Below are positions 1 through 47,770 of a DNA stretch of 64,000 nt, in pieces. The stretch's first letter is position 1. Each line of letters starts with the position of its first letter. Under the pieces are notes generated by a model. It saw nothing but the letters and a program-made list of their open reading frames with translations, did not search any database and was not told the origin of the DNA. The stretch comes from a virus (Duplodnaviria > Caudoviricetes): positions 189,297-253,296 of IMG/VR virus record IMGVR_UViG_3300021256_000002. The stretch is one strand, 5' to 3'. Both the position numbers and the translations under genes were made by a program.

Positions 1-1248
1 CTTAAACGTCGGGATATTGATGAAGTTGGATTAGTACATTTTATCGGTAACGTACCGTCAAGTACTTTAACGAATATTAGGCGAGTTGTTGAGTATGCTG
101 ACCGTCATTGGGACGAAGATCCGTTCGCCATCATGGAATGGATGAAATCAAACAAGATCCAAGATACTGAACATTCTAGTGGAAATAACAACCTGAACAA
201 GTTGCAATCAGTAAATGACGTTAAGCGTAGTTTGCGTGCTAATTGCGTTGATATAGCAACAATCGTGCACCAAGCGGCTAAGATTCAAGGTTATGAGCAT
301 ATAATAGCACATACTCAATATATCAAATCATCTGATTGGTTTGGACCAGGACATTTCTATTGTTGCTTTTCATCCAAGCAAGGTAAATGGCATATATTCC
401 ATTTTATCCCAGAAGATAAAAATGGTATTACAATCAATTACGATGAAAAGCATACCACCAAGCCTCATGATATGCAATACACAATCAATAGATATATTAA
501 GGAATGGTTAGACCCTCATTTTCATAGCATATATAGTGATAGAAAATCATCAACCGAAATAATTGATGATAATAAATTATTGTATTGGGATATGCTAGTA
601 AATAAGAAAGAACCTCAACTTGTGCTTGTACGCTCATTTCAATTTATTTCAGCAGTTGTTAAACTAAATGAAGTCTTGTCTAAATATGACTGGGCTCAAG
701 TTGTCAATGGTAAAAAATTACCAGACGGTAAATGGGACGAGAAGAATTATCGTACTCTAAACCCAAGGACATTCGAATTACTTCGTGCAGGGTGTTGCTG
801 GGATTATGTCCTTTATGAGCAAGAATGGTTCAAAAAGTATTTCCCATTCATAAAAACCCATTTGTATTATGCAGAGGGTGGTATTAATGGGCACGCCTAT
901 CAAACTCATACATGGATAAGTTTTGAAATTCCATACGATCCTTGCGTATATGTGTTCGAAGCATCCTTTAAAAAGCATACTGGAATACATAAGTTTACCA
1001 AGAATTCTGAATCTGGTTTTAGTGCTGTGAAAGACTCCGTCGTACATTGGTTTATGAACATATTCCCGAATCCCAATTATACTGGAGTTGTATATGAAGT
1101 AACTAAACCAGTTCGTAAAGACATGAATACTGAAGAGTTTATGGCTCATTGTATTCGGAATGGTAAGATTGTGTATAAGAAAGGTGATTACCTTGAAAAG
1201 TTTATTCAACCTTTCATAGATAACAATTATAAGTTTACAGAGTCTTGA
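1..1248 (+). CDS. 5'-truncated protein with two transglutaminase/papain-like Cys domains
   Basis: Frame is open from base 1 (LKRRDIDE...), so the gene starts before the window. Motifs RANCVDIA...GHFY and RAGCCWDY...THTW...YVFE resemble C-H-D/E triads. Confidence 0.55.
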   Translation, partial: LKRRDIDEVGLVHFIGNVPSSTLTNIRRVVEYADRHWDEDPFAIMEWMKSNKIQDTEHSSGNNNLNKLQSVNDVKRSLRANCVDIATIVHQAAKIQGYEHIIAHTQYIKSSDWFGPGHFYCCFSSKQGKWHIFHFIPEDKNGITINYDEKHTTKPHDMQYTINRYIKEWLDPHFHSIYSDRKSSTEIIDDNKLLYWDMLVNKKEPQLVLVRSFQFISAVVKLNEVLSKYDWAQVVNGKKLPDGKWDEKNYRTLNPRTFELLRAGCCWDYVLYEQEWFKKYFPFIKTHLYYAEGGINGHAYQTHTWISFEIPYDPCVYVFEASFKKHTGIHKFTKNSESGFSAVKDSVVHWFMNIFPNPNYTGVVYEVTKPVRKDMNTEEFMAHCIRNGKIVYKKGDYLEKFIQPFIDNNYKFTES

Positions 1249-18166: not shown

Positions 18167-18245
18167 AAAACCTAGAAATCTAATAACTTGAATATATATT
18201 ATATTGGTAGTAAGCAGATTGTATATATAGAAAGGAAGTGTTATT

Positions 18246-26818: not shown

Positions 26819-28147
26819 TCATGTGTCTGGATTGAGTTTCTTTTCGTAGCTATTCTCGAGGTCGTTGATACGATTAATTAGAGTCATGATGTAAAGATTG
26901 TTAACGTATATAATGATTCTATACGTTGAGTTATACTCTTTATTATAGATATTAATCTTCTGGTTATCAAGGTCTATTTCATAGTCGTATTTCTGATCTT
27001 TAGCGAATTTGCTTCCTTTAAGAATACCCTTCAATAAGGTACTGTTTTTCATGATATAGAAATTGAAAAGCATTGCATTTGATATCCCATGTTTCTTATG
27101 ATAATCCAGAATATCCTTAAGAGCGGAGTCTTTAAAGATACCAGATATATCAAGTACATCAGGTTTATCCTTAGGAATATCTTTACTCAGCATAAAGATA
27201 TTGGAATAGAAGAGAATGTATCCATCATGGTCAGTTTCTCTAAATATCTGCTGAGGGGTATAGAACGGGATTATCTTTGTTGCTTGGTTAGTATCCATCA
27301 GAAGAGCAGTATTTGCTTTCTGGACAACATCATCTCGCTCAGTTGTAAGAGCGTACATACCCATGGTATTAAATTCACTTGTCATAATGAAGTTAATAAC
27401 TGCTCTATCATATACATCACCATGCTTATTAGGATCATCTCTACTATAATTGGTAAAGATGTATTCCATGGCAATCGGATTGTATATAAAGAATTCTTCT
27501 TTCTGACTAGCATTCTTTTCTTTGAATGTGAAGAGTCGGTTTGAATTTGACGTAAGATAATTCAAGAACTTACGTACCAAACCAGTATCTGGGTCACGAA
27601 TAGGCATACCAGATATTTCAGAAATTGCATTGATGAAAGCCATTGGTACAAGGCATTCTGTTGCAGTATGCTTCTTGTATATCTGATTTTCATTATGTAA
27701 GTTGAGAAGTTTGTTGTAGAGATTAGCCTGTTGATATTCCGTCTCTACGATAATCGAACAGGTCAATTCAACACGAATACGGTTCATGAGATACGAGAGA
27801 GTTACGTCATTCACGTTATCCCGAAATATCTTATGAAACCATCCACCAGTTCGTTCATAATTATATCCTTCAATGTTTCGAGTAAGTCTACTCATTGACA
27901 TGAAGATATCGTTATCACCCATAATCACTCGAGGTTTTACAACCAGTATAGGTTTATTCTTATGAATGAATTTATCAGATTGACGATTCTCTTCAATCAT
28001 GAATTCTCTATACGGCATCTTACTTGTGATATGGATATGCTTAAAAAAATTATCAGGGAACATTCCTTTGAGATATTCAATCATTATAAAGGTAACATTT
28101 CCTGTAGTATGAGCAATTGATGCGTTAGCCATCGCTGTATTAGGCAT
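26819..28147 (-). CDS. Hypothetical protein, possibly structural
   Basis: 442-aa ORF with AGGTAGGTG RBS. Confidence 0.8.
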   Translation of the reverse strand: MPNTAMANASIAHTTGNVTFIMIEYLKGMFPDNFFKHIHITSKMPYREFMIEENRQSDKFIHKNKPILVVKPRVIMGDNDIFMSMSRLTRNIEGYNYERTGGWFHKIFRDNVNDVTLSYLMNRIRVELTCSIIVETEYQQANLYNKLLNLHNENQIYKKHTATECLVPMAFINAISEISGMPIRDPDTGLVRKFLNYLTSNSNRLFTFKEKNASQKEEFFIYNPIAMEYIFTNYSRDDPNKHGDVYDRAVINFIMTSEFNTMGMYALTTERDDVVQKANTALLMDTNQATKIIPFYTPQQIFRETDHDGYILFYSNIFMLSKDIPKDKPDVLDISGIFKDSALKDILDYHKKHGISNAMLFNFYIMKNSTLLKGILKGSKFAKDQKYDYEIDLDNQKINIYNKEYNSTYRIIIYVNNLYIMTLINRINDLENSYEKKLNPDT

Positions 28148-28197
28148 TATTATTCACCTACCTTTATTCTTCTGTATTACGAATAAAACATTAATGT

Positions 28198-28425
28198 AAT
28201 GGGATATTTCGATTTGGTTCCATTGGCGTTCAAAGTATACCTCCTTTTCAATATAGGGGGCGAAGTGGTGGAATTGCTTAACCGTTTCTAATCGGGGCGT
28301 CTTTCTTTCTACTGGTTGGATGATTTGCTCAGACCAGACAGTTTGTTAGGCTTTGTCAGTATTATAGCCCCCATTTATGTATACTATTTGCGATTTGCTT
28401 GGAACCAATTTCCATATCCTATTCA
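28198..28425 (+). ncRNA. Candidate ~225-nt rod-shaped ncRNA
   Basis: AACA-N6-TAA at 28187-28199. Nested end-to-end helices GGATAT/ATATCC, TTGGTTCCA/TGGAACCAA, AGTATAC/GTATACT, GGGGGC/GCCCCC. G-U pairs favour the + strand. Confidence 0.6.
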
Positions 28426-28500
28426 TGACTATTTCTCTTTCTAAATATAATACACAAAAGAAAGCTAGAGCGATTGTGCTCTAGCTTTCTATCCAACTTT

Positions 28501-30925
28501 TTAGATAGTGCAGAAATTGTACAGGCTAATTGTTTCGTCTTTGATGAAACCGAAATCTGAATTAATTAAACCATTATTATGGTCAATCATAAAGCCTGTT
28601 CTTGGGAAGAAGACTTCCTTAAATGCACGTTTAAACTCAGTTGTAATTTCCTTGGTGATATTCAAAGTATCTCCATCAACAGTATCTTCACATAGAGTCG
28701 TTACTTCTATGCAGTTCTCTTATGAACTTCTCCATGTCACCATGGAAGTTGAGACTATATCTTTCTTCCTATATAGGAAGTACCCCATTTCGATTTAAGG
28801 GATTCTCACCCACTCACTTGAGCCCTACTCCTGTAGCCGATTCTAACGGCACCATTTGGATAGTCGTTGAACGTTCCTATTTTCATAAGCTTCGCTGCTG
28901 ATTGTCTCATTTGAGAGTTTCCAGCAATTAAAGGTTTGGTGAATCATAGATTACTCTATGAAACGACCTAATTTAAGTCAGCATTCAGAGATTGTAAACA
29001 CTGAATAGGTAAACTACAACTAAGGTCAGAATAATCATCCTTAACTGAGGCCACGTTCATAGCTAAATATGACCCCATATTGATTGTTGGATTCCGATTG
29101 AGTAAAATCGACGAGTCGAGTTTTTCATGCGTAAGGATATACTGCATGATGCTATATACCTTAGTATCAAATTCTCGATACGCATAATACCATCTCTCAT
29201 ATGCTTGTGAGTATGAATAACCTTCTAATTTAACCAGAAGGTTAACGATATCAGGCTTCCACAACTCACAGAACGCTACATCCTTTATATTCACATAGAT
29301 TCGTTACTTCTATGCCGTTCTCTTATGAACTGCTACATGTCTCCATGTAGAGTAGACTATATCACCAACTCATATAGAGTTGCTCTCTATTTCGAGTTCA
29401 CTTGAACCCTACTCCCATAAAGGGATAGTCGTTGAACATTCCTCCGTAGAGGCTTCGCTGCTGATTGTCTCATATGAGAGTTCCCAGCAATTAAGAGAGT
29501 TTTACATATTATATCACTATAATACGCCGCTAATAACTAACGGTAAGCGTACTTCATATGAACGCAATGACGCATCCGGTACAATAACGCATCTAGCTGC
29601 ATTGTTAATACGACCACCTAAAATCGATCTCCTTATACCTTACATTCACATAGAGTCGTTACTTCTATGCAGTTCTCTTATGAACTTCTGCATGTCATCA
29701 TGCAGAGTAGACTATATCTTCATCCTATTCGATATGAATAGGAGGCTGCTGTTTCGATTTAAGGGGTTTTCACCCGCTCACTTGAGCCCTACTCCTGTTG
29801 ACGAATTTCACGTCCTAAGGGATAGTCGTTGAACGTTCTCTCTTACGAGAGCTTCGCTGCTGATTGTCTCGTTTTGTGATAGCTTGTATCCACGAGATTT
29901 CCCAGCAATTAAGCAACTTTTCCTATACAATTACTCGTATAGGGACCTATAAAGTTAAGCCCTTCGTTTTCATGAATAGACGTAAATACAGAATCGAATA
30001 CCTGGTTAAGATTATTCTGTGCTCTAAAGAGCGTATTGTTAAGTTTTGCAATATTACTGGTTTTGATTTCATGCTCATCATTGATACGACAAACGTTACC
30101 ATATAAGGCGTTGTAACATCTATCTACTTTTCTATATGAGAATTTCTCATTAGAGAAGAATACTTCACGTAATACTGCGGAATAAACCGGAATTTTAGTT
30201 ACGAAGATTTTATTCTTATTCTCCATGATGAGGTCATATTGTGCCTTGCGGTTTTTCTTCTTCCGGTAGAAGAAATCCATAATCTCATCAAATCTTTCGT
30301 GGAATTCTATCATACCAATTCCGGCGAAAGGATTCTTGTTAAGGTCTACATCAGTCGTTCCTCCATAGAAACCATCAAGTTTCATATCTTTATCAAATCC
30401 AATGATTTGAGACAGAATAGAGGTTTTATTTGCTTTACCAAAGAACACATCAAGTTCTTTATAGAGTAATGGTTGAATGATAGAGAATCTTGCATCGTTA
30501 ATCACTATATAAGCAAAGAGCTTGAGGTTCACATCTACGAACTCAACCTTTGTCCCGCAATCAGGGCATCTACGACCTTTGAAAATCTTACCAATCATCT
30601 TACCACAATCGCATGAATATCTGTCGGCGAATGCGTTATCATCGAGCCAATCGGTGCCAAACAACGGAGAATGGATACCATACATTTCTTTAGTTCCTTT
30701 AGCCGATGGTTCAGAACTCTTATCGTTCTTAGGATTCTTCTTAAACGGTTTTGCTCTTACGATGAAACCGAATTTACGTTTCATATCGTTCTCAAAGTCA
30801 GCTTCCCAATCACGAATAACTGGCATAGGACCAATCGTCTCTGCATTGTACAGCTCAGGAACCAATTGCTGTGCAAGTTCGAGTTCTTTCGGCGTTAAGT
30901 TATAATCGATACCTATATTCTTCAC
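28501..30925 (-). CDS. rpoC: Multisubunit RNA polymerase beta-prime N-terminal subunit, four exons (30925-29958, 29637-29540, 29281-28976, 28679-28501; 516 aa spliced)
   Basis: Zn finger CDCG...CPDC. Splicing restores EGLIRRSILGGRINNAARCVIVP, RLPYVAF, NRNPTI and the catalytic NADFDGD. Frame is preserved at all three junctions. Confidence 0.93.
28680..28975 (-). mobile_element. Group I intron 3 of the beta-prime gene (296 nt, no ORF), inside the NADFDGD codons
   Basis: Exon ends GAC-T, intron ends in G, next exon starts TT-GAT-GGA-GAT. Core AATTGCTGGAAAC, AATCAGCAG, TTCAACGACTA, GATATAGTCT. Confidence 0.93.
29282..29539 (-). mobile_element. Group I intron 2 of the beta-prime gene (258 nt, no ORF)
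   Basis: Exon ends CCG-T (pairs with IGS GCGG), terminal G, restores TAT (Tyr); same core motifs. Confidence 0.92.
29638..29957 (-). mobile_element. Group I intron 1 of the beta-prime gene (320 nt, no ORF)
   Basis: Exon ends GGG-CT (IGS GGTCCCT); P10 CTTTATA pairs with the 3' exon TATAAGG; terminal G; same core. Confidence 0.92.
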
Positions 30926-47186: not shown

Positions 47187-47349
47187 GATAAATTCCTCCT
47201 AAGAATTATCATCTCCCGTACGCATTGGGAGGAATCCTAAAAGCTATCTTAGCGAATGAAGTTGGATTCGACTCTTCATCTACCAATATAATATATATTT
47301 GAGGTAATCAACTTTTAGGTATTATATTCTAAGCCATAAACATAATAGT

Positions 47350-47455
47350 AATGCGAATTTCTTTTTTTGCCATATATCATATACACTGGCTCTCTGCACG
47401 ACGCGGATTGCTAAGAAGGTATACAACCTGGAGGGGTTGTATACCTTCTATTTTG
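47350..47455 (+). ncRNA. Candidate ~105-nt late sRNA
   Basis: AAACATAATAGTAA promoter (47338-47351), no credible sense ORF, 3' hairpin GAAGGTATACAACC/GGTTGTATACCTTC followed by TATTTT. Confidence 0.5.
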
Positions 47456-47770
47456 TCAGCCACGTACAATAGTAACAACTTGTGGTGCTTTGTTAGCAAA
47501 TTCTTCTAAACCGATTATCATTGTACGAAGTAATGTCTCGGTTTGAAGATCTGGAATGGATTTAAGCTTTACGTGAAATTTACCTTCATCTATATCGCAT
47601 TCCACATTATGATGCAAATAGTCTCTAAGACCATACATTGTTGTTTGGGCTAATGTAGATATACCGGCACAGACGATGTCATATCCTTTTGGAGCTACAT
47701 TACTATGCCCGTCGATATCATACCCAACAACCTGACCTTTGATGTTTTCTTTGATTCTTACAACAATCAT
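47456..47770 (-). CDS. prp: Prp ribosomal-processing cysteine protease (DUF464)
   Basis: IDGHS...GYDIVCAGISTL with catalytic His and Cys; TMIIGLEE..P; 104 aa. Confidence 0.92.
   Translation of the reverse strand: MIVVRIKENIKGQVVGYDIDGHSNVAPKGYDIVCAGISTLAQTTMYGLRDYLHHNVECDIDEGKFHVKLKSIPDLQTETLLRTMIIGLEEFANKAPQVVTIVRG

Follow-up and report, generated by a model that had tools for sequence, protein, structure and literature searches.

A predicted late non-coding RNA gene with an exposed anti-Shine-Dalgarno bulge beside the RNA polymerase beta-prime gene of an AR9-type jumbo phage

Genomic setting of the element

The window analysed here, a stretch of 64,000 nucleotides, spans bases 189297-253296 of a virus record that is 253,296 bp long and carries direct terminal repeats. 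The source is an uncultured AR9/PhiKZ-type jumbo (giant) phage from the ruminant gut, and a protein encoded near the region under study matches the PhiKZ vertex protein family. The element (28187-28425) lies within a 353-nt gap of a block of minus-strand genes. Following the minus strand, one meets the last exon of the beta-prime gene, a hairpin (28490-28459), a 35-nt spacer, the element, and then the ribosome-binding site (RBS) and the ATG (28147) of a gene for a protein of 442 aa. The minus-strand gene just upstream is a match to the non-virion RNA polymerase (nvRNAP) of AR9, beta-prime subunit (PDB 7S00 chain d, E 7e-9; phrog_2987), in agreement with an earlier note on this DNA, which had placed a beta-prime gene next to the candidate RNA. 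This gene is split by three Rfam-grade group I introns, and five to six group I introns in all lie beside the region. The genes and introns around the element are:

26819-28147, minus strand: late gene of 442 aa, function not assigned (phrog_21946)
28501-28665, minus strand: nvRNAP beta-prime gene (phrog_2987, PDB 7S00_d), split by introns; 3' end of its last exon, which ends at 28501
28730-28984, 29333-29549 and 29688-29967: group I introns splitting the beta-prime gene (Rfam gathering-threshold scan)

Relatives of the locus were drawn through the flanking gene, which gave 19 IMG/VR and 79 metagenome loci. A search of these with blastn and nhmmer returned a single homologue of the element itself, L021, a 2.1-kb JGI contig with 99% protein identity.

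A predicted late promoter facing the surrounding genes

The late promoters of AR9 follow the consensus AACA-(6N)-TA/G, the last base of which is the transcription start site (PMC5312081). The element opens with a site, AACA-ttaatg-TA at 28187-28198, that fits this consensus exactly and points along the plus strand, against the minus-strand genes. Its neighbour on the opposite strand is the promoter of the 442-aa gene, so that two promoter-type sites have to be considered:

28187-28199, plus strand: late-promoter motif AACA-ttaatG-TAA (AACAttaatGTAA), predicted start A28198
28164-28176, minus strand: the 442-aa gene's own late promoter, TACA-gaagaa-TAA, start about 28165, directly upstream of the RBS GGTAGGTGA

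Counts across this genome mark the motif as a signal. Within genes, the frequency of NACA-Nk-TAA at k=6 is 6-10 times lower than over the range k=3-10, and this is seen for all four first bases (for AACA, 5 coding occurrences at spacing 6 versus about 33 at other spacings; for TACA, 4 versus about 41), whereas in intergenic DNA it is enriched at k=6. Since NACA-N6-TAA is depleted within genes and enriched between them, we take it to be a real signal here, and judging by this distribution it is selected against wherever a promoter would do harm. Genes that lack the early motif carry [G/C]ACA-N6-TAA 13-46 nt before the start codon, with 33 sense cases against 8 antisense ones, and the other spacings of [G/C]ACA-Nk-TAA before genes stay at the background level. 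The AACA-N5-GTAA sub-class has 21 sites in the genome, all but two of them intergenic (19/21); seven precede a gene start by 27-62 nt, and about ten are not followed by any gene.

The first base of the motif counts against the element, which has an A where the gene promoters of this phage favour G, and a position weight matrix trained on G/C-first gene promoters gives its site a value of 5.2, with 193 genome positions scoring as well. Early promoters carry the core TATATTAT, which is common to AR9 (PMC5312081); it is present at 87 sites, most of them before genes, and no early promoter was found at the element on either strand. Overall, the plus-strand late promoter that the earlier note proposed, facing the minus-strand genes, is supported by the match to the AR9 consensus and by the behaviour of the motif across the genome, and the predicted late promoter, of nvRNAP type, is credible.

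The neighbouring promoter and the terminator

The promoter of the 442-aa gene lies 29 nt before its ATG, back-to-back with the plus-strand promoter of the element. A sense NACA-N6-TA[AG] is found at most 70 nt from the start in 37 of 53 related lineages, versus 0-5 lineages at other spacings. The 442-aa gene is thus served by a conserved late promoter of its own; the element is therefore no leader of it, and a role as the 5' UTR of this gene was discarded. On the far side, the element is separated from the beta-prime gene by two further features:

28424-28458, plus strand: variable U-rich spacer from the rod to the terminator, overlapping the variable stretch 28423-28449 of the comparison with L021
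28459-28490, both strands: hairpin of 13 bp, on the minus strand a strong terminator for the beta-prime gene, on the plus strand a possible weaker one

The terminator scan calls this hairpin on the minus strand only. On the plus strand the core stem is followed by UUUCUAUCC and a clean U run begins 8 nt later, which makes for a poor U tract. The hairpin is kept in L021 with one change in the loop. Transcription from A28198 would pass through the variable spacer and most likely end at this bidirectional hairpin, giving about 295 nt, and the candidate RNA is likely to measure about 230-300 bases by prediction. Its 3' end would then be complementary, base for base, to the beta-prime mRNA's 3' hairpin.

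Predicted fold of the transcript

Minimum free energy (MFE) and pair-probability calculations on the plus strand give a long rod that closes on itself, with these parts:

28198-28423, plus strand: rod-shaped RNA body, 226 nt
28198-28207/28414-28423, plus strand: closing helix, 10 bp, mean pair probability 0.94-0.97
28214-22/28400-08, plus strand: helix of 9 bp, pair probability 0.96
28234-40/28379-85, plus strand: helix of 7 bp, pair probability 0.96
28256-61/28367-72, plus strand: helix GGGGGC/GCCCCC, pair probability 1.00
28262-28366, plus strand: branched apical domain, a three-way branch of 28276-82/28345-51 around hairpins 28283-99 and 28311-42

The earlier note had described four nested helices forming a rod with a branched tip. 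All four are included in the plus-strand MFE structure (-68.8 kcal/mol), with mean pair probabilities of 0.94-1.00, and a three-way branch is predicted at the apex; the basal helix, put there at 28202-07/28414-19, is present and extends further, over 28198-28207/28414-28423. Apart from the large bulge discussed below, the loops of the predicted rod are small (2x3 and 2x5).

The fold is biased to the plus strand, with -68.8 kcal/mol versus -50.1 kcal/mol on the minus strand, a gap of about 19 kcal/mol, and the same bias is seen in the G-U pairs, 10 on the plus strand versus 2 on the minus strand. Against dinucleotide shuffles, the z-score is -3.45 on the plus strand, with none of 200 shuffles reaching the MFE, versus -1.93 on the minus strand. 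Random 239-nt windows from the same genome (n=90) have a mean z of -1.74, and two arbitrary coding windows gave -2.16 and -3.61 in the same folding test. Because 16% of the random windows reach -3.45, values near -3.5 are ordinary for this genome and are no evidence of a structured RNA, and the z-score was dropped as an argument.

The pairing between the two arms was also compared with the rest of the genome. At fixed geometry, the arm-arm duplex of -42.4 kcal/mol stands against a genome mean of -16.7, and 4 of 20246 windows equal it. This test collapses on a 4-nt register shift and was replaced by a seeded, register-free scan of 1,499 8-mer inverted pairs, 100-300 nt apart, in the 253-kb genome, in which the locus ranks about tenth in arm pairing. 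The window itself holds 249 inverted 9-mer pairs at most 300 nt apart. The outcome on whether the fold is more than chance is mixed, and what remains specific to the locus is the strand bias together with two coincidences of boundary: the predicted +1 (A28198) is the first base of the closing helix, and identity to L021 stops at the last base of that helix.

These results bear on an alternative in which there is no discrete RNA, the element being an inverted repeat that acts at the DNA level or is a relic (a decayed mobile element, an intron or gene remnant, or a protein-binding palindrome), and the promoter-like site being silent or fortuitous. The ordinary z-score, the roughly nine other loci with equal or better arm pairing, the abundance of inverted 9-mers, the orphan distribution without further homologues and the position beside five to six mobile group I introns are all in line with it. 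We nevertheless consider it unlikely, given that the strong avoidance of NACA-N6-TAA within genes implies that such sites are active where present, that the element is single copy in the genome, that its flanks show no target-site duplication or matching terminal repeats, that 28187-28425 contains no group I intron signal (Rfam RF00028, Intron_gpI) at E<=10, and that the G-U pairs are biased to one strand.

The exposed anti-Shine-Dalgarno bulge

The one large loop within the rod, and a minus-strand reading of the same bases, are defined as follows:

28241-28250, plus strand: one-sided 10-nt bulge (10 versus 0 nt), CUCCUUUUCA, unpaired probability 0.96-1.0
28177-28247, minus strand: Shine-Dalgarno (SD) sequence AAAGGAGGT at 28247-28239, TTG at 28233-28231 and 18-codon ORF ending at 28177 (rival reading)

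The bulge is unpaired for every transcript length and 3' end tried, so the exposed anti-SD loop described in the earlier note is indeed single-stranded in the prediction, as the seed of a trans-acting anti-SD small RNA should be. The 9-mer ACCUCCUUU (28239-28247), which overlaps it, is identical to the conserved 3' tail of bacterial 16S rRNA, and the commonest RBS word of this phage is AAAGGAG. Among 269 start regions, the best predicted target is that of an early gene at genome position 74298, with -20.2 kcal/mol (mean -10.2, sd 3.2), a value that does not stand out from generic SD complementarity. The start region of this gene (genome 74298-74735, outside the window), AUAUUGAAAGGAGGUAU, pairs with the bulge and its flanks through 17 pairs with one bulged U. 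A search of the phage genome for trans targets found no exact complement beyond 12-13 nt elsewhere.

Two properties of the bulge count against a non-coding RNA. CU-richness is the default for a strand antisense to purine-rich spacers, and the 'anti-SD' bases are equally a perfect SD on the gene-sense strand. This second property is the basis of another alternative, in which the minus strand is functional: AAAGGAGGT would be the RBS of an 18-codon TTG mini-ORF (28233-28177), expressed by read-through of the terminator, and its product would be a small protein or a leader peptide preceding the 442-aa gene. We rate this as quite improbable. While the SD is perfect and stands 6 nt from the TTG, about three quarters of the genome's AAGGAGGT sites stand at actual or likely gene starts, and two related loci (L081 and L023) also have a sense-strand SD and short ORF in the same spacer, tblastn shows the peptides from the window, L023 and L081 to be unrelated, the minus-strand fold is weak, a strong terminator lies upstream, and no minus-strand early or late promoter was found between the terminator and the element. 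A minus-strand GACA-N5-TAA inside the element was also considered as a promoter and rejected, the N5 spacing being at background level in this genome.

Coming back to the plus-strand RNA, the rod would keep the bulge single-stranded as a copy of the 16S rRNA anti-SD tail. Late in infection it may pair with the RBSs of selected mRNAs and block their translation, an action that we regard as possible though doubtful, and which is compatible with the exposed bulge rather than specifically called for by it. The same holds for the RBS-binding scaffold that the earlier note had offered as its alternative to a decoy.

Homologues and positional conservation

The comparison between the window and L021 shows 0 differences in 28125-28422 and 17 substitutions or indel positions in 28423-28449. 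The flanking genes differ from those of L021 by 2.3-5%, unevenly, with only 3 differences in 27825-28422 versus 14 in the 238 nt before. On these sequences, a recent recombination tract could explain the identity of the rod as well as selection does. The sole homologue is identical over the rod and so offers no covariation among the helices. Searches beyond L021 were negative. Blastn of phage records with the element gave no match, IMG/VR contained no further homologue by sequence or structure, and the loop pattern, a 31-mer and a 22-mer had no match in prokaryote genomes. A helix-pair pattern scan returned 24 hits, about the number estimated by chance, and a covariance model of the rod (R1) gave no hit in these 24 loci, in 77 related loci or in the rest of the genome.

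The position of the antisense promoter is more widely conserved. NACA-N5-GTAAT is found in antisense orientation 40-50 nt from the gene start in the window and in three other lineages (the L002 group, L025 and L081), as compared with 0-1 lineages at other spacings. The homologues of the 442-aa protein in these three are 47-50% identical, and their antisense sites lie 47-50 nt from the start of the gene. From the predicted start, each shows a hairpin at the 5' end, then unpaired bases rich in C and U (UCUUCUCUU; CUCUCC..CUUCUUCUU; UUUUUCUCCUU), and finally a terminator hairpin followed by a U tail, which is the usual build of a small regulatory RNA. The predicted transcripts measure 75-110 nt, and none has sequence in common with the rod of the window; besides the promoter, the sole feature common to all four lineages is the antisense overlap with the beta-prime 3' hairpin. 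The whole block is absent from L024 and the content is different in L023, which makes the spacer an indel hot spot. To judge from these loci, the position of the promoter is kept while the predicted RNA body turns over quickly. In L023, a 59% relative, an RBS and a hydrophobic ORF of 27 codons occupy the spacer (positions 100-300, plus strand), with a terminator behind them.

This pattern is what would be expected if the plus strand is transcribed and the sequence of the RNA body is irrelevant, what is kept being a divergent late promoter and a short transcript into the beta-prime terminator. Such a transcript would act in cis, either as antisense to the beta-prime 3' hairpin, in a feedback on polymerase synthesis, or through divergent transcription itself, and the rod would be a lineage-specific insertion or accident. 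The promoter keeps its place in four lineages while the stretches that it would transcribe, of 75 to 295 nt, are unrelated in sequence, every version would end at the bidirectional terminator of the upstream gene, and the spacer gains and loses its content, as L024 and L023 illustrate. In addition, AR9 has seven late promoters that drive antisense transcription (PMC5312081). Set against this are the invariance of the rod relative to L021 next to a highly variable spacer, the bias of the G-U pairs to the plus strand, and a closing helix that begins exactly at +1. We see this explanation as a real contender, even if on balance a doubtful one.

Comparison with 6S RNA and other known systems

The earlier note had called the element 6S-like, and this is the part of it that does not stand. 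6S RNA (Rfam RF00013 and relatives) is a rod about 200 nt long, double-stranded over most of its length and closed by pairing of its 5' and 3' ends, and in this the candidate resembles it. However, 6S RNA is defined by a large two-sided central bubble between the closing stem and the terminal stem-loop, whereas the candidate has a one-sided 10-nt bulge and a branched tip, and a cmscan of 27900-28900 on both strands at E<=10 found no 6S-type Rfam family. The Rfam scans, at the gathering threshold over the whole window and at E<=10 over 27900-28900, returned only the neighbouring group I introns and weak matches caused by the terminator, with nothing but group I introns passing the gathering threshold. 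Identity with 6S RNA was rejected on both of the points that could be tested, the model match and the two-sided bubble.

A decoy of the 6S kind would imitate an open promoter and so capture the RNA polymerase of the phage or the host. For this the 226-nt rod has roughly the right size, and it adjoins the beta-prime gene; moreover, the AR9-type nvRNAP is reported to read a single-stranded uracil-bearing motif on the template strand, which makes an RNA mimic conceivable. Yet the RNA contains no single-stranded UUA-N6-UGU, the image of the promoter template strand, and its sole TTA-N5-TGTC has the wrong spacing and is mostly paired. Together with the missing model match and bubble and the branched tip, this makes a decoy of this kind very improbable indeed.

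A fold-back of the 5' and 3' ends is also known from hok, a type I toxin mRNA, and it suggests another reading of the plus-strand transcript:

28199-28291, plus strand: possible leaderless 30-codon ORF (rival reading)

As in hok, a remote 3' segment base-pairs with the 5' end, where a small hydrophobic ORF is located. The transcript would be a leaderless mRNA for a 30-aa, partly hydrophobic peptide, whose AUG, at +2 of the predicted transcript, is covered by the closing helix and hidden in the manner of type I toxins. The peptide has a hydrophobic core, LVPLAFKVYLLFNIGG, and the L002 group has a 24-codon leaderless ORF in the same place. The other lineages do not follow: in L025 the ATG is followed at once by TGA, L081 has no ATG, and tblastn of the related loci and the rest of the genome detected no similar peptide. 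At window position 47350, a comparable GTAATG opens a frame that runs through a terminator, and the ATG is therefore more likely to belong to the promoter context than to be a start codon. The candidate also differs from hok in having no identifiable antitoxin RNA or processing signal, and its peptide is only weakly hydrophobic. A leaderless toxin-type mRNA is, in our view, highly unlikely.

In Firmicutes, RsaE/RoxS and the hairpins of RNAIII present an exposed pyrimidine-rich loop that pairs with the SD and blocks translation. These are host RNAs of 90-500 nt, with UCCC/CCCC in hairpin loops, and they are conserved with covariation. The candidate shares with them a helix-flanked single-stranded C/U stretch complementary to GGAGG-type RBSs and, by prediction, an end in a possible terminator hairpin, but it is phage-encoded, is not conserved, has no target that was singled out in the phage genome and displays a single CUCCUUUU bulge in a 226-nt rod.

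The closest relation is with the late antisense and non-coding transcripts of AR9, which were mapped experimentally, are driven by AACA-(6N)-TA/G promoters and mostly overlap coding genes (Lavysh et al. 2017, PMC5312081). The candidate has the same promoter consensus and the same kind of polymerase, belongs to the late class and runs against the flanking genes. It differs in being predicted only, in lying wholly within a spacer, in forming a long rod and in sharing no sequence with AR9. We classify it as an orphan addition to the late antisense and non-coding transcripts of AR9-type phages.

Proposed role of the candidate RNA

We read the stretch, tentatively and at somewhat less than an even chance, as a lineage-specific gene on the plus strand for a predicted late non-coding RNA whose sequence matters. 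The fold and the promoter are real features of the sequence, and from them we infer transcription, the 3' end and any target. The late non-virion RNA polymerase would start at A28198 from the AR9-type AACA-N5-GTAA site, and the transcript would fold at once into the 226-nt rod, with its first and last bases (28198 and 28423) paired. The RNA may possibly act through its anti-SD bulge or as an antisense to the 3' end of the beta-prime mRNA; in the second case its own 3' end would pair with the fully complementary 3' hairpin of that mRNA, a possible cis role that we rank equal to the anti-SD action.

A wider proposal is that AR9-like jumbo phages use the AACA-N5-GTAA sub-class for a set of non-coding RNAs, two of which would be long rods in this genome, and that the present one mimics the 16S rRNA tail to titrate or mask SD sequences, as a late switch of translation encoded next to the polymerase gene. 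As a whole, this is a speculative extension that we think has little chance of being right in full.

Jumbo phages with their own multisubunit RNA polymerases have been studied mainly for their proteins, and, to our knowledge, there is little work on RNAs made by the non-virion polymerase beyond the mapped AR9 antisense transcripts. If the RNA is real, the late polymerase would also make dedicated regulatory RNAs, and an RNA that displays the anti-SD of the ribosome would offer the phage a simple way to reprogramme translation. Independently of the RNA, the analysis indicates that the late-promoter motif of an uncultured phage can be derived from its genome through spacing-specific avoidance in genes, an approach that here exposes about ten orphan late promoters.

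Similar loci in the genome

The orphan AACA-N5-GTAA sites are typically followed by 70-450 nt of non-coding sequence, with a terminator at most sites. In five cases (window position 47350 and genome positions 124728, 179364, 181020 and 74115) the promoter is followed by 70-105 nt and a terminator. This repeated lay-out supports the idea of a class of late non-coding transcripts, as a prediction from the genome.

The site within the window (47338-47457, plus strand) has an orphan late promoter, AACAtaataGTAATG, with its start at 47350 in a block of minus-strand genes; after about 100 nt there is a perfect 15-bp hairpin (47414-47449) with a U tail, in the same lay-out as the element. The sites outside the window, at genome positions 74115 (plus strand), 124728 (plus strand), 179364 (minus strand) and 181020 (plus strand), have terminator-like hairpins and are candidate late small RNAs or attenuators. 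A further locus outside the window, genome 70655-71160 (L125:256-760), begins with a second orphan AACAttataGTAA site, behind which the sequence is predicted to form a rod of about 380 nt (-141.9 kcal/mol, z -5.68), for which no Rfam match was found. Among the long-range inverted repeats of the genome this rod is the strongest, and the divergent spacer that holds it is AT-rich and 662 nt long.

Finally, an early-promoter module, CCTAAAAGT..TATATTATATTGGTAGATGAAG, is repeated at window positions 18195 (plus strand), 31311 (plus strand), 47295 (minus strand) and 49020 (plus strand), and at five more places in the genome. The transcribed sequence after this promoter is conserved, and the module may mark a repeated small gene or RNA.
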